The notes beneath the pieces are model-generated. The model saw only the letters and a program-made list of their open reading frames with translations. It searched no databases and was not told the DNA's origin. A stretch of 64,000 bases of DNA from Plasmodiophora brassicae (taxonomy: Eukaryota), in NCBI GenBank assembly GCA_036867785.1, contig CP145412.1:434001-498000 (forward strand), read 5' to 3'. Positions 11,706-64,000 of this stretch are shown in pieces. Both the position numbers and the translations under genes were made by a program. The number at the start of each line of letters is the position of its first letter. Position 1 is the first letter of the stretch.

Positions 11706-11804
11706 TGGTGCGCCCTCACATACCGCCCGACCCGTCGGCATTCGGATCGGCCCCCCCGACCCCTGGGAATACAATTGTCAGAGACGAACGACCCGCCGCT
11801 GCGC

Positions 11805-11826
11805 TGTGTGTGTGTGTGTGTGTGTG
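11805..11826. repeat. (TG)n microsatellite
   Basis: tgtgtgtgtgtgtgtgtgtgtg visible directly. Confidence 0.9.
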
Positions 11827-11948
11827 CCTTCATCCGCTGCCAATCCCAGGCGCCCCTCCCTGTACGTATTTCGTGGTCGGACACTGGACCGGCGTCGAGT
11901 GCGCCCAATACAATCCATCAAGGCGGTGCGCGGCGCATTCAGGGATCG

Positions 11949-13318
11949 ATGGACGACGAGCCCGAGGCGCCCTGGCCACAATGGTCGTCCTTCTACGACG
12001 ACCGGCGGCAGATCGCCGTCGGCAACGACGATGTACGGGGGCGGGCGGTGGGCCTGGGCGCTGCCTGTGGACGGGTGGACCGACAGTGTGTGTGTCCGCC
12101 CACAGGTGTTCGTGGCGTACACGGCGGGCGATGTGACGGCCCCGGACGCCGTCGTCTTCGTGCTGCTGCACGGCGCCGGGCACTCGGCGATGGCCTGGGC
12201 GCAGGTCGCCGCCGCCGTCAAGTCGCAGCATCCCGTCGTGGCGTTCGACTACAGGGGCCATGGTCGGGCACCGCGCGCCTCCCCCCGCTGCTCATTGCGC
12301 TCGCCGCCGCTGACCGACGTACGATGCCTCCGCGCAGGTGACACCAAGTGCAAGGATGAACGCGACCTGGTCAGGCATGCGCGTCGACCCGCCTGTCGCA
12401 GCGTTTGCCCACACGTGGCCGTCGTTTGTTGCAGTCCGCCGACCGGCTCGTCGATGACGCCATTGCCGTGATCCAGGCGACCGTCCGTCCCGACGCCTGC
12501 ATCGTGCTGGCCGGTCAGCAGCGCCCTCCTCGACGCAGCTGTGCCAGCGCTTACCATTGTCGGTGTCCGGCAGGGCACAGCCTGGGCGGCGCCCTGGCTA
12601 TTCGCATTGCATCGCAGACCGACCGTGTTCGCGTCAGCGGCGTCGCCGTCGTCGACGTTGTCGAGGGTGAGCGCCCGTCGGCCCGCCGCCCGCTCTCCGT
12701 TGCTGAGTGTGTGTGCCGGCGCCAACGTGTCGCAGGGACAGCGTTGCCCGCCCTGCGATACATGCGGGGGATCCTGCAACGACGCCCGCAGTACTTCAAG
12801 ACGTTGCAGGAGGCGGTCCGGTACGCTGTCCACAGCGGGGCGCTGGCCACGACCGAGGCGGCGCGCGTCTCGATACCCTCGCAGCTGACGTACAGGCAGG
12901 ACACGGGCGCGTGGCACTGGCGCACGAACCTGCTGGCCAGCGAGCCGCACTGGCAGGCCTGGTTCCAGGGCCTGACGCCGCTCCTGCTGGGCCTGCACGA
13001 CTGCGCCCGCCTGCTCGTCCTGGCCGCCGCCGACCGCATGGACAAGTAGGTCGTCGTCGTCGTCGTCGTCGTCGTCGTACCGGGCACGACACGCCGGCCC
13101 TGATCTGGACAGCGCGCCCGCTGACCCGCCCGCCCCCCCGCAGGGACATCCTGATCGCGCAGATGCAGGGCAGGCTGCAGGTGGAGATCATCGCGGGCGG
13201 GCACTCGATCCAGGAGGACTCCTGGCAGCAGCTGGCCCGCGTCCTGGTCCAGTTCGCCGCGCGCAACCGGTTCGTCGAGATGCGCGCCCTGAACGACCGC
13301 CACCGGCATCGCCCATAG
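11949..13318 (+). CDS. PPME1: Protein phosphatase methylesterase 1 (alpha/beta hydrolase), multi-exon
   Basis: LLHGAGHSAMAW, DYRGHG, GHSLGG nucleophile, VVDVVEGTA, ARVSIPSQL, LIAQMQGRLQ, GHSIQED. Confidence 0.93.
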
Positions 13319-13554
13319 ACTATCCCCCTACATGTACACGCGCGGGGCACCCTCTGGCCACCGTCACCCCTTGTGTCACACGACTGGCGCGACATGACGA
13401 CGACGCCAGCGTTGCGTATGCAGGCAGCCTTGTTCGTAGAGGGGATCGTCCGCCGGTCCAGGTGTGATCCAGGTCGAGGAGAGAGAGCGGCGGGGGCCAG
13501 TCCGTGGGCGCTCGTGGGTGCTGCGGGCGCGACCACAACACCACGCCCGACGCC

Positions 13555-14161
13555 ATGCTGCGACGCGCCCTGGCCCGCATCGCCCAGCACCGCCGCCTCG
13601 TTCGATGTGCCACTACCGGCGGCGGCATGCACCGACGTCGACGGCATCGCCGCCACCAGGGCCTGACCATCATCGGCGGCGACGACGACGACGACGACGA
13701 CGATGATGTTGCTGCGAGGCGTACGCGACGGGAACGCGCCCATGTCGACGCGTTCCAGGCGGCGCCGTCGGTGGAGGCGGCGATCCGGGCGCTGGACGCG
13801 AACGTCGACGAGGGCAGCGCCTGGTCCATCTTCGAACGCGTGATCCACAGCCCGCGTCTGACGCCGACGCCGCCCTTCTTCGCCAGCATGATGCGCTTCT
13901 GCTGCCGGCGCATGCCTCGTAAGGCGCCCGTCGTCATGAGCACGGCCGGCGCCCTGGGCCTGGCGGGCGACAACGACGACCTGTTCGCCACGTTCCTGTC
14001 GGCGTGTGCCAGGGCGTCGCCGGCGCTGGTCGAACCCGCCCTGGACCTGTACGGGCGGTGGGGCCCGCGCACGCCCCACACGATCGGGGCGCTGGCCGAC
14101 CTGTGCCAGCGGGCCGGGCGCCCCGACCTGGCCCTGCCCGTCCTGGGCGACGCCCTGGACA

Positions 14162-14231
<70 letters not shown>

Positions 14232-16071
14232 CGTGCCCGTCAGCGACGCCCTGCTGGCCACGTTCGCCTCGTGCTGCGCCCGGGCGGGCAGCGGCCCGGG
14301 CGCCGACGCCGCCCAGCGCCTGCTGGATCGTGTACGCGCGCGCCGGATCGTCGTCGCCCGGCGCCCGTTCGCCGACCTGTGCCGCGCCCTGCTCGCCCAG
14401 GGCCGCCTCGACGCCGCCCTGTCCTGCGTGTCGCTCATGGGCGACCGGGGCCTGGCGCCCGGCGCCGCCCTCCACAACCTGCTGCTCGAGCACGTCGTCC
14501 GCGCCGGCCGCCTGCCCCATGCCATGCGCCTGCTGGACAGCATGACCCGGGCCGGCGTTGTCGTCCAGGCGCCCGCCCTGTGCGCCCTGATCGGCGCCGT
14601 CCAGGCCGACGGCGCCCTCGACGCCCTGGACGCGTACGCGGCCGGGCAGGCGCCGGTCGCCGTCAGCGAACCGGTCGGCAGGGCCCTGGTGGCGGCGTAC
14701 GACGCGGCCGGGCGCCTGCGCGACGCCGAGCGCGCCTTCCGCGCGTACCGGGCGCGCGCCCTGTCGCCGCCCGGCCCCGCCCTGTACGCCGCCATGATCG
14801 GCGCGTACCATCGGCACGGGCGCCACCGGGACGCCGTCGACCTGTTCGACCGGGCCGCCGACCTGCACGACGTCGCCGACGACGACCATCTGCGGGCGCT
14901 CATGGTGCGCGTCTACGCCGACGCCGACCGGCCGCGCCAGGCCCTGCGCCTGCTCGACCACCAGCTGGGCGGCGCGTCCTCGTCGTCGTCGGTGGACCCG
15001 TCGACCCTGGCGGCGCTGGTCTCGTCCTGCGGGCGCGCCTCGCTGCTGTCGACGGTCGTGGCGCTGCGGGCGCTGGCCGCCGACCGCCGCCTGCTGACCG
15101 CCGACCGCGTCCTGGGCGCGTTCATCGCCGCGTACGCCGCCTGCGGGCGCCTGCCGGCCGCCGTCGACCTGTTCGAGGCGTCGTCGTCGCCCGGCGCCCC
15201 CCACGCCCTGACCGCCATGCTCCTGGCGTACGGCCAGGTCGGCCAGGTCGACCGCGCCCTGGCCCTGTACCGGGCGACGACGACGACGACGATCGCGGCC
15301 GGCGCCTCGCTGGGCGTCCTGCGTGCCCTGCTGACGGCCTGCAGCCACGTCGGCGACCTGCAGGCCGCCGACGACCTCGTCGACGCGTTCCCGGGCGGCG
15401 GCGCCGCACCCTTCCTGCTGGACCCGATCGTCGCCCGGCACCGCGTCGACCTGTACGGCCGCGTCGGCGACCTGGACCGCGCCGAGGACGTCGCCATGGC
15501 CGTCTACAACGACGCCGTGGCGGGCGACGACGACGACGACGACGAGGTGCGGGTCGGCGCCGCCATCACGCCACCGTTCGTGGCGCTGGTGCGCGCGTGC
15601 CGGGCGCACGGCGACGTCGACCGGGCCGAGCGCCTGCTTGCCATGGTCGGCGGCGCCGGCCTCGACCCGGCGGTCCTGTGCGACCTGCGGGCGGCCGCCG
15701 CACCCGACGGTGGGCCGGGCCCGACCATCCTCGTCCTCGACGACCGGTCGCTGCGGTTCCAGCACGACGACGACAACGCGTTTGCCGCCGATGGGCGCCT
15801 GCGGGACGCGCACGCCGACCTCGTGGGCGTGGGGGCGGCGGCGGCGCACAGCGAGACGCTGGCGCTGGCGTACGCGGTGTCGACGACGACGACGACGACG
15901 GGGGCGGACCCGATCTGCGCCACCAAGGTCGGCCCGGGCGCCATGTGCCGAGCGTGCCACGATGTCGCCGGGCGCGTGTCGGCCGCCTACCACCGGGACG
16001 TCTACGTCCGCGACGACGTCCGGCACCACCATTTCCGCCATGGGTCCTGCTCCTGCGGCGACTACTGGTGA
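13555..16071 (+). CDS. Pentatricopeptide-repeat protein with C-terminal DYW deaminase domain; putative mitochondrial presequence; intronless
   Basis: Arg-rich N-terminus without acidic residues (MLRRALARIAQHRRLVRC). PPR motifs such as LYAAMIGAYHRHGRHRDAVDLF and ALLTACSHVGD. C-terminus HSETLALAY...CRACH...VYVRDDVRHHHFRHGSCSCGDYW*. Confidence 0.92.
14164..14229 (+). repeat. (GAC)22 coding trinucleotide repeat (poly-Asp) in the PPR-DYW gene
   Basis: 22 uninterrupted GAC units, in frame. Confidence 0.95.
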
Positions 16072-16123
16072 TTGGTACACGCAGCGGTGCGTGTGTGTGC
16101 ATGTGCGTGTGCGTGTGCGTGTA

Positions 16124-17166
16124 TCAGGGGCAATCCTGCAGCGGGACGCTCGCGCCGCCGCCCTTCGTCGTCGAACCCGTGTCGTCGTCGAGGTCGACGT
16201 CGGGGAGAGGGGCGCCGGTGACGCCCCCCAGGGTGACCAGGCGCCTCTTGACGTGGTACGTCATGACGAGGATGGCGACGGCGCTGCCGACGAGCGAGGC
16301 GATGGTGGGCGCCATCTCCGCCGACCGCCAGTTGACGTTGCCCTTCTCGATCCGGCGCAGGAACAGGGCCAGGTTCTCGATGTGCGTCCCCACCCAGACC
16401 ATGAAGATCAGCTTCACCTGTACGAGGGGTGCCCCCGCCCGGTCAGATACAGGCCCGGTTGTGCGGGCGGACGGGCGGCCCGACCCTGGAGCAGCAGGTG
16501 GCGGCGAAGAACTCCCAGTGCCTGGCGTCGGACATGCTGAGCAGGGCGTTCGTGATGCCGAACGGCGTGTAGCACAGCTGGACGAGGAGGACCGACTGGA
16601 ACCCGTGCTGCTTGAACGTGTGCTCCAGGGCGACCATGTGCCTAGCCAGGCAGCCGAACCGGGCGCGCAACGCCGACGGCGACACGCGCCCCTGCCCGAT
16701 CAGCCAGCGCATGACGACCCAGGTCAGCTCGGAGCCGACCACCAGGCCCAGCCAGCCCAGCGGAAACGCCCACCACCCGTACAGGTACGCGGCCGCGAAC
16801 GTGAAGAACCTATAGAACACGCACGCGCGAGCGACACACAATCAGGCCACAAACAGGAACGGCGGGACAAGGGCGGCGGTGTGGCGTACGGGGCCGCCAC
16901 GGCGAACGGCGTCGCGTTGACGATGAACGTGGCGAACACGACGAGCAGGGTCGCCGGGCTGTTCCGGTCGACGCGGTCGCAGACCTATACAGGGGGTCGA
17001 ATCCGTCAGCCCAGGGGGGGTTCAGCGCGCCGATGCAAGCCAGGCGAGGGGCGCGCACATAGACGAGGGCGTCGATCGCGCACGGGAGCACGAACTTGAG
17101 CGCGACGGCGACGGCGACGATCGCCGCGACGATCAGCAGGCGCCTGGTCAGCAGTGCGACCCTCAT
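16124..17166 (-). CDS. TVP38/TMEM64 (SNARE-associated Golgi, DedA/VTT domain) membrane protein, multi-exon
   Basis: FTFAAAYLYGWWAFPLGWLGLVVGS...GFQSVLLVQLCYTPFGITNALLSMSD..WEFFAATC matches the VTT domain pattern. Confidence 0.8.
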
Positions 17167-17668
17167 CGATGACGCGTACGACGATCGATTACCACGGATG
17201 GGTTTGACGGTCGACGACGCCCGTGGGCAGCTCGGCGGCGGCGCACCCGCACAGGTCCTCTCCCGCAGTGCCGCATCCCGCCCGCCGCCGCACGACCCGG
17301 GACTGGGAGGGACCACGACCAGGACCACCGGCCTATCGCTCGTTCACCAGCGCAGCGGAGATGCGGTTGCCGCGAGGCGTCCACCCAACAGGCTGGCGTG
17401 CAGGCCTATTGTCCAGGCTATGCACAAGTTCGCCCACAACGGAGGTTCTCCGCGAATCGGTAGGCAGCTGCGACGACCCCAGATCCGTCGTGGCGTGTCC
17501 GAACGTGATGGGTCACCCCAAAGCACGCCTACCCGTCGCACACTGAACACGCCCGTTGAACAGTATAGTTGACGATCACATGGCGTTCGAGACGGGGCCG
17601 CGCAAACATGCCCTTCGCTGGATGGGCTCGGCCAGGTGACGATGCTCGATGGGAGCGACCACATGCTG

Positions 17669-20251
17669 TTATGTATCAAGCAGCTGCGACGCTGCGTAGA
17701 GGAACGTCTGCAGGGACACACGGCCGGTATCGTCGTCGGCGCATTCCTGTAGCGTACGGACGAACTGGGAACATGTGTCCCGGGACAGCTCTCCTGTGCA
17801 ACACAATGTCTGTGAGTCGCGCCGTCCCAAGGACCCCCAGTGCAATCGACCTACGGAATGCAGGCGATCCAAACACAACAGCCTCGAGTTCATCCACAGA
17901 CACGGAACCCGATCGGGAGGTATCCACGCGGAAGAAATCGTCACCCAGGTGCTGCCCTGCATCGGTTCCTGGGGCGCACTCTGTAAGCAGCGGCAGCACA
18001 CGGCGATAGGTTGACGGTCACCAGACCTTGCGTCGCCGCCGGGGCACCCATCGTCGACAGGAACGTCATGCCGGCCTGGTACTGGCGAATGCGGCGCTGC
18101 TGATCCCAGCGCAGTTCATCGCCCATTAACGCGATGACGGCAGGCAATGCCTCACGAGCCGCACTGGTGTTCAAGAACGCCAAGCGCGTCCGCCGCGCCA
18201 TGACGTCAACCACGGTCAACGCGTGCTCGTTGCGAACAGAGTACAGGACTTCGGCGCGAATGAAGGCGTACCCCGGGGCTAATCGTTTGGCGAGGTCGGG
18301 ATCCTAAGCAGTTGGTGGTGACGAATCAGATGGGACATTGCAGAACTGGCGCGGCACGCGTACCATCTTGCACATGGCCGCAATCTCCAGGGCGCGAGCA
18401 CCGTAAGAGTGCGCTAGGTGGGCGCCGACATCATCGGGCAGGCTACCTGACCCCCTGCGTCAGCCGTACATTCGTGGCATCGGAACCGACGCACAATCGA
18501 TGGACCTTGCTGGCTGACGGCCGCTGCGGTCTCGTGCGTCCAGCCTTGTGTACCAATGAGCGGCATACCGTATGTGATGCATGGGACCCCAGGTGCGATG
18601 CGATCGACAACGTCTTGTGCCATCGCTCGGTACGTTGTCCATTTGCCACCGGCGATTGTTATCAGTCCGGATACGGGGTCGACGTCGATGACGTGATCCC
18701 GGGACACGCCCTGCGTCCCACCGACAACCCCGGATGTCGGTTTGGCAAGCGGCCGAATCCCCGCCCAGGCCGACGCGACGTCGTCCCGCCCAACGGGAGC
18801 GCAGAGGATTTGCGACACTTCATCCAGTATCCAGTCGACCTCTGCATGGCTGTACGTTTACCGTCGATCGTGCGCTGACATGTACGACGGTCGTACCTTT
18901 CTCGTGGGCTGTCGGCAAGTCGACGACACCTGACGCCGCGTCCGTCGTCCCGGCAATGGTCGAGCCTTCCCACGGAAGAAGGAACAAGACGCGGCCGTCT
19001 GGCGAGCAAGTCAGCACATCGATGAATCACATGGGCGCCTCCGGATCACTCGCCTGAAGTTTTCGGGATTAACAGCCCCATGTCGGCCGGTGAACAGCTG
19101 TCCGGCAGAGTTACGTGAACACCGACGCTGGGACAGATCATTGGGGCGACGCTCGGCGAATCCAGTTTCCGGATGGCATCGGAGAAGGGGCCGGTCGCAT
19201 TCACGATTGTCTTGAGCACGCGGACCACGGGTCAGTCGGTCCAAGAGCAAACGGAAAAGCAACAATCACAGCGGACCTTGGCGCTAATGTCCCAGACATC
19301 ACCCGATTCCGCATCACGAACGGTTGCCCCCGTTACTTTCCCGCTGGCGTCCTTGAGCAGCGCTGTAACGCAGGTGTGATTGAGGACATCGGCGCCCCGG
19401 TCGATGGCGGTCAGCGCGATCGCTAGATTCATCCGAGCATCGTCGTGCAACCCATCGTAGTAGACGACGGCGCACTTCAGCCCGTCCCGGTTCAGCATTG
19501 GGAATGCCGTCAACGCCTGCTCCCTCGTCATGAAATAACTGCTCTTCAGCGCGCCACTCTTACCCGCCACCAGGTCGTACACTTTCATGCCTAGAGACGC
19601 GCAGTGCCCTTGAGCAACCGATGGCGATCGACCATGACGCCCTACCGATGTAGTAGTACGGGGCAGTGAACAGGACCAGGGGGAACCTGTCGTAGTTCGG
19701 GACGATCGTCGGCAGGGCGCGGACCAGGTGAGGTGCGATCGTCATGAGATGGCGACGCTCCCGAAGCCTGCATCGAAATTGCAGAGGCGTACGACAAGAC
19801 GCACAGGCGGGGGGCGGGCGTACGCTTCGTGCACAAGATGAAGCTGGGAATAGTCCAGCTGGGTGACTGCCTTCTCCAGGTATCGTACGCCGCCGTGGAT
19901 GAGCTTGGAGCTTCGCGAGCTGGTCCCCGATGCGAAATCGTCACGCTCAACCAGGCATACCGACAGGCCCCGCGTCACGGCATCGAGCGCGATCCCGGCG
20001 CCCGTCGCCCTGCGCGCCCCCGGTCAGCTGCAGACGCAGGCCATGAGGGGCGGGGCGCAACCTGACCCTCCGCCAATCACCAGCACGTCGTACTGTTTCG
20101 CGCGCGTGCGCTGCACCATCTCGCCCCGTGACGGCGACCGACGACGATGGTCGGGGGCGGCCTCGGACGACACCATTGCCGATGGTGACCCCACGACGAC
20201 GACGGCGGCCCCGACGGCGGCACCTGCCAGGGCACGCCGCGCTCGCCACAT
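17669..20251 (-). CDS. GPD2: Mitochondrial FAD-dependent glycerol-3-phosphate dehydrogenase with C-terminal EF-hand, multi-exon
   Basis: [85 protein letters not shown]-hand [12 protein letters not shown]. Confidence 0.95.
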
Positions 20252-20575
20252 GTCACGCGGCCGACCCCGCTGTTCACCGGATTCGTTGGCCGCGCGCCCG
20301 AACAGAACCAATGTTGAAAAACGTCGACTGGCCCAGCGGAGGGCGCGGCGACAGCACACCCCCCCCCCCCCCCCCCGGTCCAAAACAGCGCGCGCATTAT
20401 CACGGCACGTCAATACAGGATCGTTCGCCCCGCCCTGGTGGGTAGCGATCCGTTCGACGGTCTGGCGCGGCGCGATGCCTTCGTTGTCGGCAACCGCGCG
20501 GGAAGGGCCCAGCGTCAATGAAAACCCCGCGTCGAGCACTTGCTAGTTTACTGACTGGGTACAGCATGGCAGGGA

Positions 20576-21573
20576 TCAGCGTTGCCGGTTCTGGTCGGAC
20601 TGGCGCTGAAGCGCAGACAGGAGCGCATCGACACCGACATCCTGGTCCGCAGGCAGACCGAGCTGCTGGAGCAGGGCCTGACCCTGGCCGCTGTTGATCG
20701 CTGCCGTTAGACGATTCAGCGTCTGCTGCAGCTGTGGGCTGCGAAGTTGCTGTTCCAGGGCCTCGCGGGAGCGTTGCCCCTCGGGGAGGTCGGGCAGGAC
20801 AGCGGCGACCAGGTCGGGATGGCGCTGAAGCAACGGGATGACGTGATCGGGGTTCAGAACGGCACCCAGCGACTGAACCGGTGCGGGCCGCTGAGGCACC
20901 GCTGTTGCCCCTGGCGCTTGCACCTGTCCGGTCAGCATGGCCAGCAACTGGTTCTGATCGAGGGTGCCAGGTGCAGGGCGGGCGCCACCCGTCAAGGGCG
21001 TTCGCCCCGACAGGTACCCATTCATCTGTTCGATTAACGATGCGTCGTGGTCTGCCTTCGGCTCCTGTAGCCAATACAAACGACGGCGCGAACGGTCACC
21101 GGCGAACTCCACCATCAGAACGCGCCCTGTATCCAGGACGTCCATTAGTAACAGTTGAGCAATGTCACAGTTAAAATACCGTCGGTGCATTCGGGGATTA
21201 ACTCGACAGTGGCTTCGTTCGGCAGCACGATGTAATCCTCCTATACGTCAAATATTCAACGATGTGCCCAGTAGTAGGGCAGCCGCGGAAACACCCTGCA
21301 TACCTGGACTTCACCAGATGGGCGCAGTTGCCACTGGACATGCAGCAGACCGTCACGCTCTGAACCGGCAACGTCAGCGGATATTGTTGGGCGAACGCAC
21401 ATCCACTGACCGAGGAACACAAGTTTGCCCTTGCGTGCATCGGCGGTCACCGCTGTGCCAGACTGGCTCAAGGTGCCGGCACGGCACGACATGAGCCCGT
21501 CAGACGCAGCAGCACCGCCAGCGGCACTGCCCGCCTGACTTGTCAACCCGGCCAGCAATCGCTCGAGGTCCAT
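20576..21573 (-). CDS. RPN13: Proteasome ubiquitin receptor Rpn13/ADRM1, multi-exon
   Basis: Pru domain (CRAG...VTADARKGKL...DGLLHVQW; GRV...RRLYWLQEP) and C-terminal DEUBAD domain (LRSPQLQQTL). Confidence 0.9.
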
Positions 21574-21774
21574 CGCGACCCCGCCTGGCCGTTCCGAAAA
21601 TGCGACCGCCGACAGCGACGACAACAAAAACGACCGCTGACATTAATTTTGTAAAAAAATGACCACAGCGAACGTCGACACGCCGGCGGCATGGGGGGCC
21701 TGACCTACTGGCGACACTGGATTGGAGAGGATTGTATTGGGCGAGAATATTGTCGCAGCCAGACGACAGGCCGG

Positions 21775-23201
21775 TCAGTCCTTGTCGAAACCCGACCATT
21801 GCTGGTCGTCTATCGATGTCGCTGGCGGGAGTTCGAGAACGTCGTCACTGAAGTTGGTCGTATCGAACGGATCGACCAGACGCGGCTTGTATGGCGCTGA
21901 CATGACGCATGCTGACAGAGCTTCCCAGTTGAAGCCGACAAAGTTTGTCGAATGGTTTGTCACAAACCATTCATGGGACTTGATCCCGTTAAGACCTATG
22001 GAGACATACAATCAGTTAGGCCTGCGTTGCACGGTCTAGCCAGACGATCTTACTCAGGCGCTCCTCAGGGTTGTGCCTCAGAAGACCTCGGACAAGGTCG
22101 TATGCGCCGGGTGGAAGGCTCCGTGGCACCTGGATCTCATCTTCCGCGGTGGTCAGGATTTTGCGAAAGACTGCCATCTTCCACTCGTTGGCGTCTGCGT
22201 AGTCTCGCCCGTCGGTGCGAAACGGTGACCCGGACTCGAACAGGTCGCATATGAATATGCCGAGCGACCACCAATCCGCTGCACCCGTATATCCGTCTCG
22301 CGGCGCCGACAAGCCCAGACTAGGGAAGTCGCGGTGAGTCGCAATGACCTGATAGCAGAAAAAGGTCATGTGAGGAACGCATGGGTCGCAACGGCGGGCA
22401 AGGCGGATACCTCTGGAGCACAGAATTCAGTTGTCCCTTGGAACACCCTGGCGTTAACCCCCGGCTGCCAGGTTGTGGAAGTCGCCCAGTCGACGAGTCG
22501 TACGTACCCGTTTTCGTCGAGAACCACGTTTTCGGGTAATACGCTGCAATGAATGGCCCCCTTTCGATGAATGTCTTCCAGGATTAGCGCTATCGACGCC
22601 ACATAGAACTTGAGCATTTCCTCTGTGGGCTTCGTGCCTCGGGTCTGAATTGGATTTCCAGGCATCAGGATACGTGAACAGCAGTACATGAACAAAAATA
22701 TGTACAATTGTAAACAGGTCGCCACCAGGAACATACTCCATCACGATGTACGCGTAATTGTCATCGTGCATCGCACAGTACGCCTCAACCACCCCGGGTG
22801 TGTCTCGTACAACGTCCAGCAGAGCGTCACGTTCGAGCCGGGCACGGAGGGACATTTTCTGTTTGGAATACTACACAGAGCAGCGAGGTCAGCAGTCCGA
22901 CATTACCGATGCCTACTCGAGCCTGCGTACTTTCTTCATCGCGTACGGACGCTTGTTCGTCTTGTGCTTCACCAGGTAGACCATGGTTTTGTCCTTGGTG
23001 CCACCGATGGCTTTGATTAGTTCGAAATCATCCACCTTGCACGGCTTGGGCGGCGGCTCGCCCCGCGACGCAGCGACGGCCTGCACATGGACAGTCAGCC
23101 GTGATCCATGCCAGCCGGCACCATGCGGGTTGCCTTACGAGCACGGCCACGAAGACGGCAATGACGGCAAAGGCGTAGTTGATGTTGGATCCGGCTAACA
23201 T
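21775..23201 (-). CDS. AGC-like protein kinase fold with N-terminal signal peptide; probable pseudokinase, multi-exon
   Basis: DDFELIKAIG, YAMK, YIVMEYVPGGDLF, GTTEFCAPE, DWWSLG and AGC C-tail (APYKP..DPFDTTNF). Catalytic loop reads IHCSVLPEN and DFG reads DWA. Confidence 0.85.
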
Positions 23202-23450
23202 CGCGTCCCGTCGTGAATCACAAATGACGATGCCGTCCGCCCAGAAGATTCCTACAGGCGGAGGCCGCCTGGTTGGTGCTTCACGCAACTACCGTACAGT
23301 CGGCGAGGGGTCCCGAAAATAAGACCGCGTGGTATACGCGGGGCACGCGATCTTAAAATATACATACATGAGGGCTGCTGCTCCGCTGGATGACTTTCTT
23401 GTACCCAGAGCACGCTGGAAGACGCCTGCGCGCGCCCGTCATAGACCAGA

Positions 23451-25463
23451 TCACCAGAAATCCCCGCATGAGCATTGCCCCTGATGGAAATAGTGATGAC
23501 GGCTCGAGTCGCGCACGTAGACGTCCCGGTCGTAGATGCTGGACGCTGCTTTGATAGCAACGTGGCAATCAGGGCAGACGCGTACGGTCTTAGCTAGGCG
23601 GATCTGGCCGCTGCCCGGGACGTTGTTCAGCGCGTACGCCAACGCAATGATCTCGCTGTGCAGAAACACGGACTGGCTGGACGGCGCGCCGGCCAGTACC
23701 GCCGGGTTCGTGTACCCGACGGCCATCAGGCGCTGGACCAGGTCGGCGTGTTGGTCGACCAGAACCTCGTCACCGTGAAACCGCTCGTCATTTGAAAAGT
23801 AGTACGAGCAACAGGTTGCCTGCTGCACCGATGTTCGCCCTGGATCGATGAGCAGCCCCTGGCGTTCCATGTCCAGTCGCAGGCGCCTGTACTCGTCGAC
23901 GTTCCCTGCAGTGGCGTGCATGTGCAGCAGCCAAACATAGGCAGACGCTAAGGAATGCGCAGGGACATGGGGCAGCTGGCGAATCGTGGAAAGCGCACGC
24001 TCCGCTCTAGGTAGGTCGTTGTGCGTACGACATCCCGCCAGCACATACGACCAGGACATGACGGAAGTCATCGTCGATGACGCCGATGACCTGACGGCCG
24101 CTTCCTCGGCGTCGTCCAACTTGCCGGCATTGGCGTACAGATCGGCTAGCGTCGACCCAGACAGGTCGTCGGGCAACGAGATGTTCCAACGACGGGCAAA
24201 GTCGGACTGGAGGTCGGCAGCGCGCGCAACGTTGCCCGTCTGGCAGCACCCGACGAGGAGAGCGCTCAGCGTCCTGGACGTTGGCACCAGACGCGCTTCC
24301 GTCGTCAGCTTCTCGAACGTGGTCCGCGCTTGCTCGACTCTGGAGTGGTGCCCATACGCAGCGATCATCGAGTTGACCACGGGGACCGACGGCGTACGAC
24401 CCGCGAACACGCGCTCGCCCGCGTCGATATCGCCGCAACGGTCGTAGGCGCAGATCAGGGCGCCGACAACGATATCATTCTGCAGCATATCGTCATCATG
24501 GGCGTACCGGTGGAGGGTCTGGACCAGGGCGATCTCGAAGCAACGGCCGCAGGATGCGATCAGCTCGGTCAGCACAGGCGCAGTCACTGCGATGCCCCGT
24601 TCCTTCATCGCGGTGAACAACGCGAACGCCTTGAACACGCGATTCGCTCTCGTCAGCGCGGACAGAACGTGCGTGTAGATCGGCATCGATACAGGTATGC
24701 CTTGCGATTCCAGGCGGTCCAGCGCGTTGACGGCGAGATCGAATCGCTGATGAACGAGCAGGGCCTTCACCAAATTCGCCAACGACGCCTGGTTGCCGTG
24801 CAGCGGTATCCGATTCGACTGCACCATGTGCAGCAGGCGTTGAGCGACGACGGCGCCCGATCGGTGCCCAGTGCTTTCGGCACAGAGGGCGGCGAACAGG
24901 GACAGCAGCCGATCGCTGAACTCGACGTTGCGGTTGACGGCTTCGTCGACGAGGAACAGCGCCGCCGTGGGGTTGTTCGCGATCCTGCACAGGTTCGCGA
25001 CGCCAAAGATAACGTTGTGGGATCGCGGGCCGCACGTCGCGAACCGGTTGAGCGCGTCCCGCATGAGCGCCTGCGGCGCACGCTGACACGCAGCGATGAA
25101 CGTGCAGAACAGCTGGTCGCAGATGGCGACCCCATGCTCGACCGCCCTGTCCAGCACGTCCGGCGCCTTCTCGGGAGCATGCCGCCTACAGAACGACATC
25201 ATGGCCTGGAAGAATCGGACGTTGGCCCGTAGGCCGGTGTTGATCGCCGTCTGGAACACGTGCCAGGCGCGATCCGCGTCGGTGACTTGCTGGAACACGA
25301 GGACGGCACGGACGGCAGTAGGACGACGGCAGAATTCCGCATAGGCCAGGCAGGGCTTCACTGACGCCGACGTCGTCGCTGCATGGCCACCCGCCGACGA
25401 CGTCGCTGCCGTCGTCAGCGCACCATGGCAACGCGCGACAACGGCTGCAGCCCAACGACGCAT
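23451..25463 (-). CDS. Pentatricopeptide-repeat protein with E/E+ and DYW-type (DFW) deaminase domain; putative mitochondrial presequence; intronless
   Basis: PPR motifs (VGALICAYDRCGDIDAGERVF, VNSMIAAYGHH), E-like WSYVLAGCRTH, PG box DPGRTSV, and HSEIIALAY...KTVRVCPDCH...VRDSSRHHYFHQGQCSCGDFW*. Confidence 0.93.
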   Translation of the reverse strand: MRRWAAAVVARCHGALTTAATSSAGGHAATTSASVKPCLAYAEFCRRPTAVRAVLVFQQVTDADRAWHVFQTAINTGLRANVRFFQAMMSFCRRHAPEKAPDVLDRAVEHGVAICDQLFCTFIAACQRAPQALMRDALNRFATCGPRSHNVIFGVANLCRIANNPTAALFLVDEAVNRNVEFSDRLLSLFAALCAESTGHRSGAVVAQRLLHMVQSNRIPLHGNQASLANLVKALLVHQRFDLAVNALDRLESQGIPVSMPIYTHVLSALTRANRVFKAFALFTAMKERGIAVTAPVLTELIASCGRCFEIALVQTLHRYAHDDDMLQNDIVVGALICAYDRCGDIDAGERVFAGRTPSVPVVNSMIAAYGHHSRVEQARTTFEKLTTEARLVPTSRTLSALLVGCCQTGNVARAADLQSDFARRWNISLPDDLSGSTLADLYANAGKLDDAEEAAVRSSASSTMTSVMSWSYVLAGCRTHNDLPRAERALSTIRQLPHVPAHSLASAYVWLLHMHATAGNVDEYRRLRLDMERQGLLIDPGRTSVQQATCCSYYFSNDERFHGDEVLVDQHADLVQRLMAVGYTNPAVLAGAPSSQSVFLHSEIIALAYALNNVPGSGQIRLAKTVRVCPDCHVAIKAASSIYDRDVYVRDSSRHHYFHQGQCSCGDFW

Positions 25464-26034
25464 TCCGAGTTGTGACCTGTGCCCACGCCAGGGGTGCAAC
25501 GGCATCGGCGAGCCCGCTGCACTGCGCCGCAAGTTGGTCCGCCTCGCCGCGGCTCTACGACCCGCTGACCGCGTCATCACTGCACAGCTCACACGCTCAG
25601 GGTGCTGCTGAAACGCAGGGCGAAGGGAAACACACACGCATTGCCATGCGCACGCTGTATGTATGAGCTCGAAGTGTATCCGCGATCTGAAACGCCGAAG
25701 AGCTGTGCGCTAACCATGGTTTCTGGAGCACGGCGACCGCCGGGGTTGCCTGTGAACCCAAATTGGTTCGCCAGTTGCTGCTTTTGCGGATCAGCAACGC
25801 CCTCTGGACGCAACGAAGCGTCGGCGATGCGAACGAGGGCTGAGGCCGTGTACGTCAAAAATAGGTACGGTAGGCCAACTGCGAGTGCGGAATGCCGACG
25901 CGGTCCGTACCTGCTCGATGCTGTCTCATGGCTGCCTGCAGCCGCGGCGAGCAGTTCTATTTTCAGAACGAGGGCCCCTGATCTGTGATCACTGGTGTTC
26001 CGACCGGCGTCCTCGTCCTCGCTGGGCTGGAGGC

Positions 26035-57086: not shown

Positions 57087-59599
57087 ATGGCCGACCTGGA
57101 GATTGTCGTCAGGCTGCGCAAGCAGGCGCATTTCACGTTGAAGAAACTGTCCAAAGTCCTGCATCGCACTGGCCCTGCCCGAGCAGGATGATACTGACGA
57201 GGTCGGCGTGGGGCAGGTGTTCCTGAGCTCGACGATCGATGAGGTGCCGCAGTCGCAGATCATCGGCATGCTGGAGCGGGCCAGCGACCTGATGCAGTCC
57301 GGGCACCTGGACATCAACGCCAGCATCAGCCCGGGCACCGGCAGCACGCTGCTGCACATGGCCGTGTTTCATTCGAAACCCGACGTCGTCGCCTGGCTGC
57401 TCGACCACGGCGCCAACGTCAACGCTGTCACCATCCAAGGCAACACTCCCGTAGGTCGCGACGCCCGCCCGGAAGCTATGTCATACGACGGTTCGTCACC
57501 AGTGTTGTTGCGCGTGCTTAGGTGCATTTTGGATGCGAACGCATCGACAAGGAGTTCGGCAAAGAGATCGTCAGGTACTGAGCGCGTTCCCTATTGGGAG
57601 GACACCGTGATGCTGACCTACTGGCAGCCTGCTGATGCGACGCGGGGCAGACGTTCACCAGGCGAACATGGAGATGCAGACGCCGCTGGACCGGGCGACA
57701 GCGTTGAATCATCGCAACTTTGTGGAATCGTTGCTGGTGGCGCAGTCGGCGCCATCACCGGCACCATTGGCGCAACCGGAAACGAACCCGCCAGTGGTCG
57801 TTGTGACGGCGCCGCCATCGGAAACGGGACCTCGCGACCCGGCCAAGGTCGAGGCGGCCAAAGCCGTGCTGGCTCAGCTGCACGCGTTGTTCGTCGAGGG
57901 TAACCCGTCGGCGACAGACGAAGCCACGCTGGCCGCATTGCTAGACGCCAGTCGGGTCCTGATCACGCAGCGATACCTGGACCTGGACGCCACGTTCGGC
58001 GACAATGACATGACCATGCTGCACGTTGCCAGCAAGCAGGGCAACAGTTCAGCGGTTGCAATGTTGCTTTCGGCTGGAGCGAACCCCAATGCTGTCAACC
58101 TGAAAGGGAACACCGCGTTGCACTTTGCGGCCATGAACAGCGATGGCGGGCGGGCCAGTCGCGATCTGATGACCGCCCTGGTGGTCGCTGGTGCCGACCA
58201 GTCCATCAGGTACGAAGAGCGCCATTTGTCCTGCCGTCTTACGCATCGATACTCCAGGAACTATCTCGAGGGAAAGACAGCTGCTGAGAACGCGGCGTCG
58301 GACGACGTGCGCAAGTTCCTGTCGGAGGTGGCCGTCGCAGGACCGCCGTCGGTCGGTATCATCAGCGACCTGAAAGCCAGTCAAGACCAGACCCTGCGGC
58401 ACAAACTCGAGCAGGCTCTCAAGACGGACACCGCCGTCGGATCGTTGGCCACCGAGGAGCTGGACGCGCTTACCAAACAGTCGACCGCCACGCACAGTGC
58501 CGTTGCTGACGAGCGGAAAAGGTACAACGTCCTGGACCTCGTTTGGTGGGCATTCGCTGACGAACAGCGCCCTTTTAGATCGAACTCGTCGTTCCTGAGT
58601 AAACTGCAGAAAGGGAGGCAGGCGGCGACGGCGCCTCGCACGAAACTGGATCCGTCGATCGCCGCGCTGATCGGATCACTGCATGAGATGACCGCTGCAG
58701 AAGATGCGCGACTGGGCCGCGTGCAGGCCACGCAGCAGCAGGCGCAGTCGTCCGCTGCCGACTACCTCCTGGCTCGCCTGACTGCCCAAACGCAGATGCC
58801 GCGCGTCGAGATCGGCGACGAACTCAACGCGCTCACCGTCAACGCTGCTGCTGTGGACACGGCTCGGGCACACTCTCGGGCGCGCTCCACCGAGAACTTC
58901 ATGCTGAAATTGCAACGCGGCAAAGGGTTCGCGGACGTCGCCTCGCAGGTGAACGCCCTGGAATCGGCAGAGCGATCCAGGCAGCAGGCTGTGAAAGCCG
59001 GGCGTGACCGTGCCGACGACGATCTGGCGAAGAAGCTGGCGGAAATGAGGACGAAGAGGCAGGCGAACGACGGCGAGTCTGGGGGACCGGCCCGACTGGG
59101 CGCGTCCAGGGTACGCCCGGCCATAACGCCGGAGATATCGCGCGACCTGAACGCAACGTTCCATTTCCTGGATCGGCAAGGTCGAGGCGCTCTTCCAGTC
59201 GAGGTCGTCCACGAGTTCCACCAACGGCTGCACCTGTGCTGTGACCTACCGTTACACGTGGCGCGCGACGCCCTGAAGGACACTGGCGCCATCACGACCG
59301 CCAACTTCCAGACCGTCCTGACCCGACTGCATGAGCGATGCCAGCGCGACCAAGCGTTCCACTGGGACTTCCGCCTACTAGACACGGATCGCGACGGCGG
59401 TCTGTCGCTGTCAGAAGCGCGCACGCTGCTGATGTCGTCGCCGTCGACCACGCTGGCCGGGCGCGCCGGCGCCAGCACGACCTCCATCAAGGCGTCGACG
59501 GCAACCCTGCACTCGTTCCTGGTGAAACGCCCAGACCCGACATCCAGCAGCACGTGGGCATCGCGAACGGATCTCTACGCCACCATCGTCCTCAAGTAG
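57087..59599 (+). CDS. Ankyrin-repeat protein with coiled-coil middle and C-terminal EF-hands (multi-exon; may extend further 3')
   Basis: TLLHMAVFH..WLLDHGANVNA, MLHVASKQG..LLSAGANPNA..GNTALHFA; EF-like FHFLDRQGRG and FRLLDTDRDGGLSLSE. Confidence 0.8.
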
Positions 59600-62143: not shown

Positions 62144-64000
62144 TTAGAAATCTGCTAACAGTCGTGAGCAGAGCGGGTCTCCTTCGGCTTGTCGTTCGAG
62201 GAAGGCCCTGACGATATCAGGAACATCGGCCGCCATGACCGAGTAAGGTTCCCATGAATTGTCGGTGGCATCGAATCCGATCCAGTTGATCAGTAGTTCA
62301 GTGTCACCTGACGTAGAGTTGACTCGAATGTCCTCGACTGCGTTGACTTGGTAAGCCACGCCGGTGAGCGCGATGTTGTGCTTCAGGGAAGAGGTGACAT
62401 TCAAGTGCGCATCTGCATAGAACATTAAGCGCTGGGCGTGTACATCTGAGATACGATCAGTCAAGAGATCTCGAACTCGATACACCCAGTCGTTGATGGT
62501 GTCGATAATCTGGGCAGGTCCAGTCCAGTTGTACTCGGACTTGGAGTGCTTGCCATGGTTGGCCACGAGAACATAGTCGCCCGTCGTGAAGTTGATCTCG
62601 CGAACATTGCGTCGGCGACGCCGGGCGCGTTGCTTGAGATCACGTAGATGGGTGCGTGTACGTGCCACTGCTTTGTGCATGTCCTCGAGAGAATCGATAA
62701 GTTCCGTCGTCATTTCCTTGAGACGGTCAGGGGTCAACGGTACGTCGATAACCGCGTCGATGCGTTTGTTGAAGATAATCGAGATAGGTGTCGAGGGTGG
62801 CAAACCCGTAAACATCGTGACAGGCGCGTAGCCCACACTTGATCGAACAGTGTGATTTACCGTCATGTTGATCAGCGGAAGGACATACGGCCAATCCTGG
62901 AATGGAAGATTTAGCTCGGAGAGGAGGGACTTCAGCAGAAAGAGAAGCCGCTTGTTGACAACCTCAACCGTGCCGTTCGCCCAAGGTGTGTAGGCAGTTG
63001 TGAAATGATGGTTGCAGTGTAACCGGCTATTAAGCTCGGCGATAACCGCGTTTTTGAAGTGTGTGCCGCGGTCAGAGACATGTTGGAAAACAATGCCGAA
63101 ACGTTTGAACCAATCCAGAAGAGATTCGGCGACAACGCTGTGATCCGCGAATTGACAAGGAATTAACTCGACGAATGCCGTGGCGTCGTCCTTCAGAACC
63201 AGAACATAACGAAGTTGATGAGAATCGCCTGGACGAGGTTTGGATAAGAACAGAAAGTCATAGTGGATGACCTTATTGGGCTTGTCCGCATGCATAGCCG
63301 TGCCAAAAGGTCGGGGAATCATCGAATCTTTGTTGCGTAGGCAGTGTAAGCATTTGTCCACAAATGCACGAACAAAGGAATCCAGATCAGGCCACCAGAA
63401 GAGTTGTGCGATGCTCGAAATAGTCGATGCAGCAGGTTGATGACCAGACAGTCCCATATGTGAAATCACTGCGATGCGTAGCTGCAGTGCATGTGATGGT
63501 ACCCAGAGTTGATTGTCTGGAGTACGCCAGCCAGATTCCGGGCTAAGGTGGAGAGACATGTCCCCTTCGAGTTGGAGAATATCGGAAACGGCAGATAGGT
63601 CGTGTTGGCGAATGTAGTCGGTCTGAGCGTTACTAATCTCGTCGACAGACGGCCAGATAAACTCATCGGTCATCTTGTAATCGTCGAAGTCAAGATTAAT
63701 TGCCATATGACGAATAGAACGGAACGATGGAGGGGAAAATGAGGAGAGTGGTTGCAGGGCGACGCCCCACCGCGTGGCGAGGTCGGCCCAAACGTTGTCC
63801 TCCCCAGCAATGTGCTCAATGTGAAAATCTAGGTCGATAATCTGAAGTCGCCAGCGCTCCAAGCGATCGCCGGTCGTCCGACTAATTCGTGCAACCGAGG
63901 CTGGGTTCAGAATGAAAACCAAATTACGGTGGTCTGTGAAGATTCGAAGTGCCAGCTTTGACATAGAGATGAAGTGTCTGAGGCGATAGCAGCCTTCAAT
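62144..64000 (-). mobile_element. Ty3/Gypsy chromovirus-like LTR retrotransposon pol (RNase H end, integrase, chromodomain); truncated by window edge
   Basis: FTDHRNL..RLERW..HIAGEDNVWADLATR (RNase H), H..GH..CxxC zinc finger, D,D(35)E (IHYDF, SDRGTHF, NGTVE), WTGP module, chromodomain LLINWIGF...SWEP. Confidence 0.96.

Follow-up and report, generated by a model that had tools for sequence, protein, structure and literature searches.

Nuclear PPR-DYW genes of Plasmodiophora brassicae form a lineage-specific family of candidate mitochondrial C-to-U RNA editing factors

Does an intracellular parasite of plants edit its own mitochondrial transcripts with proteins built like those of land plants? 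This question is raised by a stretch of 64,000 nucleotides of the Plasmodiophora brassicae genome (contig CP145412.1, positions 434,001 to 498,000; hereafter the window), in which two open reading frames, ORF A and ORF B, each encode an array of pentatricopeptide repeats (PPRs) followed by a DYW deaminase domain. To our knowledge, no catalysts of organellar C-to-U editing other than PPR-DYW proteins are known; their scatter outside land plants is debated, with an ancient origin set against repeated transfer from plants. The organism is a rhizarian parasite that, unlike land plants, has no plastids, and phytomyxids, the group to which it belongs, are obligate intracellular parasites of plants. 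We propose, with a probability of about 0.6, that ORF A and ORF B are nuclear PLS-class PPR-E-DYW genes of a family specific to the P. brassicae lineage (Phytomyxea, Rhizaria) and that their function is site-specific mitochondrial C-to-U editing.

The two ORFs (Table 1) point towards each other, their 3' ends being separated by 7.4 kb. Both score above the Pfam cut-offs for PPR (PF01535; 65 bits in A and 55.4 bits in B, cut-off 25), PPR_2 (47.9 and 55.8 bits, cut-off 30) and DYW_deaminase (PF14432; 58.9 bits, E value 4.4e-16 in A and 84.9 bits, E value 3.4e-24 in B, cut-off 24), the last covering positions 24-93 in A and 22-93 in B of a 93-position profile. The apparent layout of ORF A runs from an Arg-rich N-terminus through an N-terminal module common to the family, a PLS-type PPR array, E1 and a shortened E2 to a DYW domain ending in GDYW; ORF B likewise has an Arg-rich N-terminus and the N-terminal module, followed by ~2 PLS triplets, E1, E2 and a DYW domain ending in GDFW. 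In the translations, the C-terminal motifs read HSE...CRACH...HHHFRHGSCSCGDYW in A and HSE...CPDCH...HHYFHQGQCSCGDFW in B, and the H..F..G.CxC.DYW tail, which combines the second zinc site with the DYW tripeptide, is present in both. The first 40 residues of A and of B each contain 12 Arg and no Asp or Glu, and B stays free of acidic residues to residue 60. An in-frame GTG at position 13504 lies upstream of the first ATG of ORF A, and ORF B has an alternative start at its in-frame Met 39 (position 25463), where the 670-aa public model P0208 begins.

In each ORF one frame takes in all of the homology with the paralogues, beginning at the N-terminal module and reaching their last residue; the genes between the two ORFs are split into several exons. 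The two proteins are collinear along their full length at 31% identity and are therefore paralogues, the middle part of A being ~140 residues longer than that of B. A first-pass annotation of this DNA, whose end coordinate of 25463 corresponds to Met 39 of B, had described two paralogous, intronless PPR-DYW arrays on opposite strands ~7 kb apart, with complete zinc-deaminase signatures and Arg-rich, presequence-like starts. The ORFs and Pfam scores, the one frame per gene that covers the whole homology, the HSE, CRACH/CPDCH and CSCGD[YF]W motifs and the full-length collinearity bear this description out, as does, for the starts, the composition of the first 40-50 residues. A six-frame scan of the window with custom profiles of the DYW domain and of the N-terminal module detected these two copies and no third, the module profile scoring 280 bits in B and 192 bits in A.

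The residues needed for deamination are in place in both proteins. HxE and CxxC are intact in A and B in a profile alignment made with hmmalign, and both window proteins have canonical HSE and D[YF]W ends, the DFW ending of B being also seen in the named plant matches P0010-P0012. The proposed U-to-C editors of hornworts, lycophytes and ferns carry a variant called DYW:KP, in which the PG-box and C-terminal signatures are altered. A survey names this variant (PMC13386178).

AlphaFold2 (AF2) models of the last 210 residues of B and the last 200 of A, built from alignments of 51-54 sequences, reached a predicted local distance difference test (pLDDT) of 91.2 and a predicted template modelling score (pTM) of 0.82 for B, and 82.3 and 0.67 for A. 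The best Foldseek matches of both models, at a probability of 1.00, were the crystallized, RNA-bound synthetic PLS-type PPR-DYW protein 9kfx, the OTP86 DYW domain (7o4e/7o4f) and DYW1 (7w86). Model B matched 9kfx with an E value of 7e-15 and a template modelling (TM) score by query of 0.83, and the OTP86 domain with TM scores by target of 0.77-0.80 (for 7o4f 0.77-0.78, with a root-mean-square deviation of 1.9); model A matched 7o4e/7o4f with E values of ~1e-6 and TM scores by target of 0.66-0.73. The next matches were bacterial cytidine-deaminase domains and were far weaker. The predicted fold of both C-termini is therefore the cytidine-deaminase-like DYW fold. Neighbours in the ESM Atlas were Streptophyta DYW clusters only, which is a lead and not a test. 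Residues 321-728 of B also align without large gaps to residues 208-612 of 9kfx (169 bits), in an alignment that, interpreted on the layout of this protein, traverses one P-L-S triplet, P2-L2-S2, E1, E2, the PG box and the entire DYW domain. Judged from its sequence, ORF B is a short member of its family, with a putative presequence, the N-terminal module, ~2 PLS triplets and an E1-E2-DYW part.

With B as the query, 1.84 billion cluster representatives were searched exhaustively by HMMER, which returned 7607 matches at E <= 0.001, 590 of them at E <= 1e-30; a word-based search restricted to the DYW part of B returned 4 matches, not enough to build a tree. The family was analyzed from the best 150 of the 7607 HMMER matches, and 156 proteins were compared in all. 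When residues 96-300 of B, the N-terminal module, were used as a phmmer query, 67 of the 156 proteins were matched (ORF A at 71.4 bits), and 65 of these were assigned to the family under the rule that the module match exceed 60 bits and start before residue 260; P0061, which carries the module further inside the protein, falls outside the 65. Among the matches listed, identity to B is 32-43% for the family proteins and falls to 24-31% in those ranked after them, where only residues ~290-728 are matched. The module is absent from the plant editing factors among the matches, and of the 90 non-family proteins compared, only P0155 matched it, weakly (19.1 bits). Pairwise identity across 47 paralogue representatives averages 42% over the N-terminal module and 46% over the DYW part from HxE to the end; conservation among paralogues is as high in the module as in the catalytic core. 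Pfam detects in the module only a sub-threshold PPR_long match (21.7 bits, cut-off 27). In the alignment of A with B, a 22-residue gap in B lies opposite the poly-Asp insert of the module of A. The middle part of the paralogues varies in length from ~250 to 800 residues, and an offset scan revealed a 35-residue period together with ~101, 137 and 173 residues in different members and no single unit; a BLAST self-comparison for internal repeats gave no matches.

The family is large. We looked up 22 of its clusters by name, with 43 further representatives lying outside this look-up, and 21 of the 22 contain a protein named for P. brassicae in NCBI or UniProt, mostly as 'DYW domain-containing protein'. 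As the representatives differ mutually by more than 50%, at least 21 distinct paralogues are present in P. brassicae alone; in database entries, paralogues are 32-45% identical to B. The hint of a larger family that the first-pass annotation had drawn from two genes in one window has thus grown into dozens of paralogues (65 of 156 proteins with the N-terminal module, 21 of 22 clusters named for P. brassicae). The exception among the 22, P0051, comes from environmental sources only. P0051 and P0063, the latter outside the 22 clusters, combine the N-terminal module with an intact DYW domain, are known from environmental assemblies only and branch at the base of the family, outside a 39-member core clade (support 99/84). 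They may come from other, unsampled relatives of P. brassicae.

Active sites are retained in part of the family. With B and its near-duplicate P0003 counted once, there are 41 complete family DYW domains, of which 22 have both HxE and CxxC and 19 lack one or both (16 lack the H or the E, 7 a Cys of CxxC). The degenerate domains (P0004, P0009, P0014, P0015, P0020 and 14 others) retain the CSC.DYW tail. Non-family matches are intact in 77 of 80 cases and degenerate in 3, and the DYW domains from clusters named for P. brassicae are intact in 14 of 19 cases and degenerate in 5. The pattern suggests that the degenerate members are catalytically dead, possibly working with an active partner.

The origin of the family was explored with a maximum-likelihood tree of DYW domains (IQ-TREE, LG+C20+F+G4; 84 rows, 154 columns), which is unrooted and contains no named protist DYW sequences. 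P0003, proteins that had no complete DYW domain and 37 of the 80 non-family domains were excluded, the non-family rows being the named ones plus every second of the rest. One branch, with an ultrafast bootstrap of 100 and a Shimodaira-Hasegawa-like approximate likelihood ratio test (SH-aLRT) value of 99, splits the 41 family rows, A and B included, from the 43 others, which include six named land plants (Selaginella twice, Cryptomeria, Nymphaea, Silene and Pyrus). The bootstrap was not fully settled (correlation 0.942), and a quick tree agrees on the split. In the quick tree ORF A is sister to P0048 (SH-aLRT 94), whose cluster holds a P. brassicae-named protein and with which ORF A is collinear at 34% identity. 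Between the two genes, an exon at 19274-19588 (105 aa) shows 100% identity to the protein named glycerol-3-phosphate dehydrogenase of P. brassicae, and 52% to that of Spongospora subterranea, which identifies the window as nuclear DNA of P. brassicae or of an almost identical strain. The assignment to a non-plant eukaryote, made at the outset with plant contamination as the point to check, therefore holds. The phylogeny answered its question in part: it contradicts a recent transfer from an angiosperm host, and it is compatible with ancient ancestry as well as with an old transfer from some plant lineage, making no choice between these two.

Intron-bearing housekeeping genes flank ORF A and ORF B (Table 1). 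Just upstream of ORF A, at 11800-13320 on the plus strand, exon-like pieces with HGAGHS and GHSLGG motifs resemble, by eye, an alpha/beta-hydrolase. Further along the window, a 654-aa ORF at 57635-59599 on the plus strand encodes ankyrin repeats (Pfam Ank, 42.3 bits) and has a weak EF-hand match, and a 606-aa ORF at 62144-63964 on the minus strand, which extends past the window end, encodes an integrase zinc-binding domain together with an integrase core and a chromodomain; this second ORF is the 3' part of the pol gene of a Ty3/gypsy-type, chromovirus-like retrotransposon. For this GC-rich, (TG)n-bearing sequence, it had been considered that it might come from a kinetoplastid and be linked to the tRNA-Trp deaminase of trypanosomes; both ideas were dropped given the Plasmodiophora matches.

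Table 1. Position of the two PPR-DYW genes, their parts and the genes between them in the window
Feature	Position	Strand	Basis and remarks
ORF A, intronless PPR-DYW gene	13555..16071	+	838 aa from first ATG (stop included)
N-terminal module of A	13750-14420, approximate	+	
(GAC)24 microsatellite inside ORF A, poly-Asp insert in N-terminal module	14158..14230	+	Tandem Repeats Finder
Catalytic core of A DYW domain (HSE, CRACH, HHHF..G.CSCGDYW)	15880..16068, approximate	+	P0001 residues ~793-855; translation, hmmalign
FAD-dependent glycerol-3-phosphate dehydrogenase, multi-exon	17900..20250, approximate	-	exon-like ORF pieces
Proteasome Rpn13 homologue	20576-21190	-	Pfam RPN13_C 68.8 bits
Protein kinase	~22.0-23.1 kb	-	read by eye in ORF translations
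ORF B, intronless PPR-DYW gene	23451..25577	-	708 aa from first ATG at 25577 (stop included)
E1-E2-DYW part of B, last 210 residues (PG box, HSE, CPDCH, CSCGDFW)	23454..24083	-	AF2, Foldseek, Pfam 87.1 bits
N-terminal module of B, 205 residues (P0002 residues 96-300)	24738..25352	-	phmmer; common to P. brassicae paralogues

How would such proteins work? The Arg-rich presequence would direct import into the mitochondrion, the PPR array would recognize a short stretch of RNA lying immediately upstream of the cytidine to be edited, and the DYW zinc deaminase would convert this C to U, with HxE and CxxC at the catalytic zinc and the H...CxC tail at the second zinc. In plants, E-class PPR proteins use DYW1/DYW2-type partners in trans. 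By analogy, one could envisage plant-type mitochondrial editing at many sites, in which intact members deaminate and the ~45% with dead active sites recognize the sites and rely on a deaminase provided in trans; we put this extended model forward tentatively and hold it to be somewhat short of an even chance. The proposed editing has precedent because paradinids, which are also rhizarians, combine mitochondrial C-to-U editing with PPR-DYW proteins (PMC11946409) and because PPRD1, the single PPR-DYW protein of Diplonema, is needed for editing (bioRxiv 10.64898/2026.09.04.749523).

Several observations weigh against mitochondrial editing by A and B. The available text of the paper describing the P. 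brassicae mitochondrial genome reports no editing, the words 'RNA editing' occurring only in a reference title (PMC6823432). Since 19 of 41 domains lack HxE and/or CxxC, part of the family is predicted to be unable to deaminate alone. The ~2 PLS triplets that follow the N-terminal module in B are few for site-specific recognition by plant standards, and the presequences were judged from composition only. The Pfam E_motif (PF20431) stays below threshold in B (13.7 bits, cut-off 27.3) and gave no match in ORF A in the Pfam scan. The PG-box region aligned to our custom 150-column DYW profile in B and failed to do so in ORF A, which also has, besides its shortened E2, a shorter linker from PG box to HSE, both features being common to its nearest relative P0048. 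Finally, frames other than that of ORF A are open for more than 1000 codons in this 77% GC DNA, so that an open frame is by itself weak evidence.

This last point leads to the rival view that ORF A is decaying or has no function, its frame remaining open only since stops are rare at such a GC content, and that B alone is at work. ORF A is indeed the most divergent member, as no protein compared is more than 34% identical to it; its E2 and linker are shortened, its DYW score is below that of B, and it contains poly-Asp and poly-Thr microsatellite inserts as well as further trinucleotide runs in frame, including (CGA)n. The exact ORF A protein is also absent from a collection of 15 billion proteins; ORF B is present there, with a 670-aa model in NCBI and UniRef. 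ORF A is probably unannotated in public records, where a model with another start or repeat length is possible. The region around it is flanked by (TG)11 at 11805-11826 and by a GTGCGT repeat at 16087-16122, and a block of 70-78% GC at 12000-16000 of the window spans ORF A and the gene upstream. However, ORF A retains HSE, CxxCH and HHHF..G.CSCGDYW, its homology runs collinearly and without a frameshift from the N-terminal module up to the final residue, the GC fractions of codon positions 1/2/3 (0.80/0.53/0.95) are uniform over the length of the gene, and the AF2 model of its C-terminus adopts the DYW fold. We therefore consider decay of ORF A improbable. That both genes stem from contamination with DNA of the host plant, or were recently acquired from the angiosperm host, might be suggested by a domain content resembling that of land-plant editing factors and by the fact that, among the matches listed, the best named full-length ones outside the family are the land plants Selaginella, Cryptomeria, Nymphaea, Silene and Pyrus. 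Overall identity to plant proteins is nevertheless only 25-31%, the family has an N-terminal module of its own, matched weakly in 1 of the 90 non-family proteins (P0155), the adjoining exon is that of P. brassicae, and the DYW tree separates the family from the six named plants. On the exon identity and the tree split, contamination and recent host transfer were rejected, and we give them next to no credence.

If A and B are genuine P. brassicae genes, they could still act without editing. The main rival to our proposal, which we regard as unlikely, is that the proteins are mitochondrial RNA-processing factors (splicing, cleavage or stabilization) that bind through their PPRs and belong to a family that expanded along with the mitochondrial introns. 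In its mitochondrial genome P. brassicae carries 54 introns, compared with 5 in Spongospora, and the exon borders proved hard to define (PMC6823432), and no editing is reported for P. brassicae in the searchable part of the literature. The 19 family domains that have lost catalytic or zinc residues would fit this role, as would the 23 of 64 family representatives with no complete DYW domain. Yet every catalytic and zinc residue is retained in A, in B and in 14 of 19 DYW domains from P. brassicae-named clusters, a conservation difficult to account for unless at least some members of the family deaminate, and editing and RNA-processing roles are compatible with each other. Because the parasite is intracellular, and clubroot is accompanied by nocturnal expression changes of PLS-class PPR genes in the host (PMC13247141), one might also imagine effectors sent into the host cell to alter the editing of host organelle RNA. 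The case is circumstantial, and the N-termini, which are Arg-rich, lack acidic residues and show by eye no obvious hydrophobic signal-peptide core, argue against it, as does the resemblance of the family to an ordinary housekeeping organellar family; we consider such a role highly improbable. Site-specific editing of mitochondrial RNA remains the reading that we favor.

How new is this family? The novelty that the first-pass annotation implied was overstated, as public proteomes carry many 'DYW domain-containing protein' entries, among them a 670-aa model of ORF B. A survey from 2026 puts the number of rhizarian DYW domains at 31 and argues that transfer from plants took place several times (PMC13386178), and the paradinid study describes one to three PPR-DYW sequences along with mitochondrial C-to-U and A-to-I editing, stating that C-to-U editing was previously unreported in rhizarians (PMC11946409). 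For P. brassicae, two 'pentatricopeptide repeat-containing' genes were found to be differentially expressed (PMC8298192), and its mitochondrial genome of 114.7 kb, in which TGA is read as Trp, was annotated with mapped transcriptome data (PMC6823432). We found no published description of PPR-DYW genes in phytomyxids in the searchable literature, which was judged partly by titles and abstract openings. Novelty is modest, since P. brassicae DYW proteins are already auto-annotated and rhizarian editing is known; what goes beyond the record is how large the family is, that its N-terminal module is conserved, that a high share of its active sites is degenerate, and the apparently unannotated, extremely GC-rich ORF A.

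The debate on the origin of these proteins gains a useful data point from the clubroot pathogen, whose DYW family is large, monophyletic and clearly not of angiosperm type. The family predicts that edited sites occur in P. brassicae mitochondrial RNA. If this is true, the annotation of the parasite's mitochondrial genes would change, and part of the annotation trouble in these intron-rich genes could be explained. It would be the first editing system in Phytomyxea and would add a second rhizarian editing lineage, with a much larger factor family.

Compared with the PLS-class PPR-E-DYW factors of land plants, the P. brassicae proteins appear, from the alignment of B to 9kfx, to have a similar succession of P-L-S, P2-L2-S2, E1, E2 and PG box; they show the same zinc site of HxE and CxxCH and the same H..F..G.CSC.D[YF]W tail, and they too are encoded by intronless genes of a multi-gene family; their predicted fold superposes on that of the OTP86 DYW domain and of 9kfx. 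They differ in an overall identity of 25-31%, in the ~200-residue N-terminal module that is missing from the plant matches, and, in B, in a short variable array and an E motif below the Pfam threshold. Nearly half of the family DYW domains are degenerate, against 3 of 80 in the other matches. The auto-annotated P. brassicae 'DYW domain-containing protein' entries belong to the same family and organism and consist of database names only. Outside plants, the heteroloboseans Naegleria and Acrasis reportedly combine PPR-DYW proteins with mitochondrial C-to-U editing. Paradinids, Heterolobosea and Diplonema share with P. brassicae non-plant nuclear PPR-DYW genes with presequences and conserved HxE/CxxC; editing is documented in those three, whereas in P. 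brassicae it is predicted from the genes. The scale is what sets the clubroot pathogen apart: paradinids yielded one to three PPR-DYW sequences and Diplonema has a single one, whereas the P. brassicae family has dozens.

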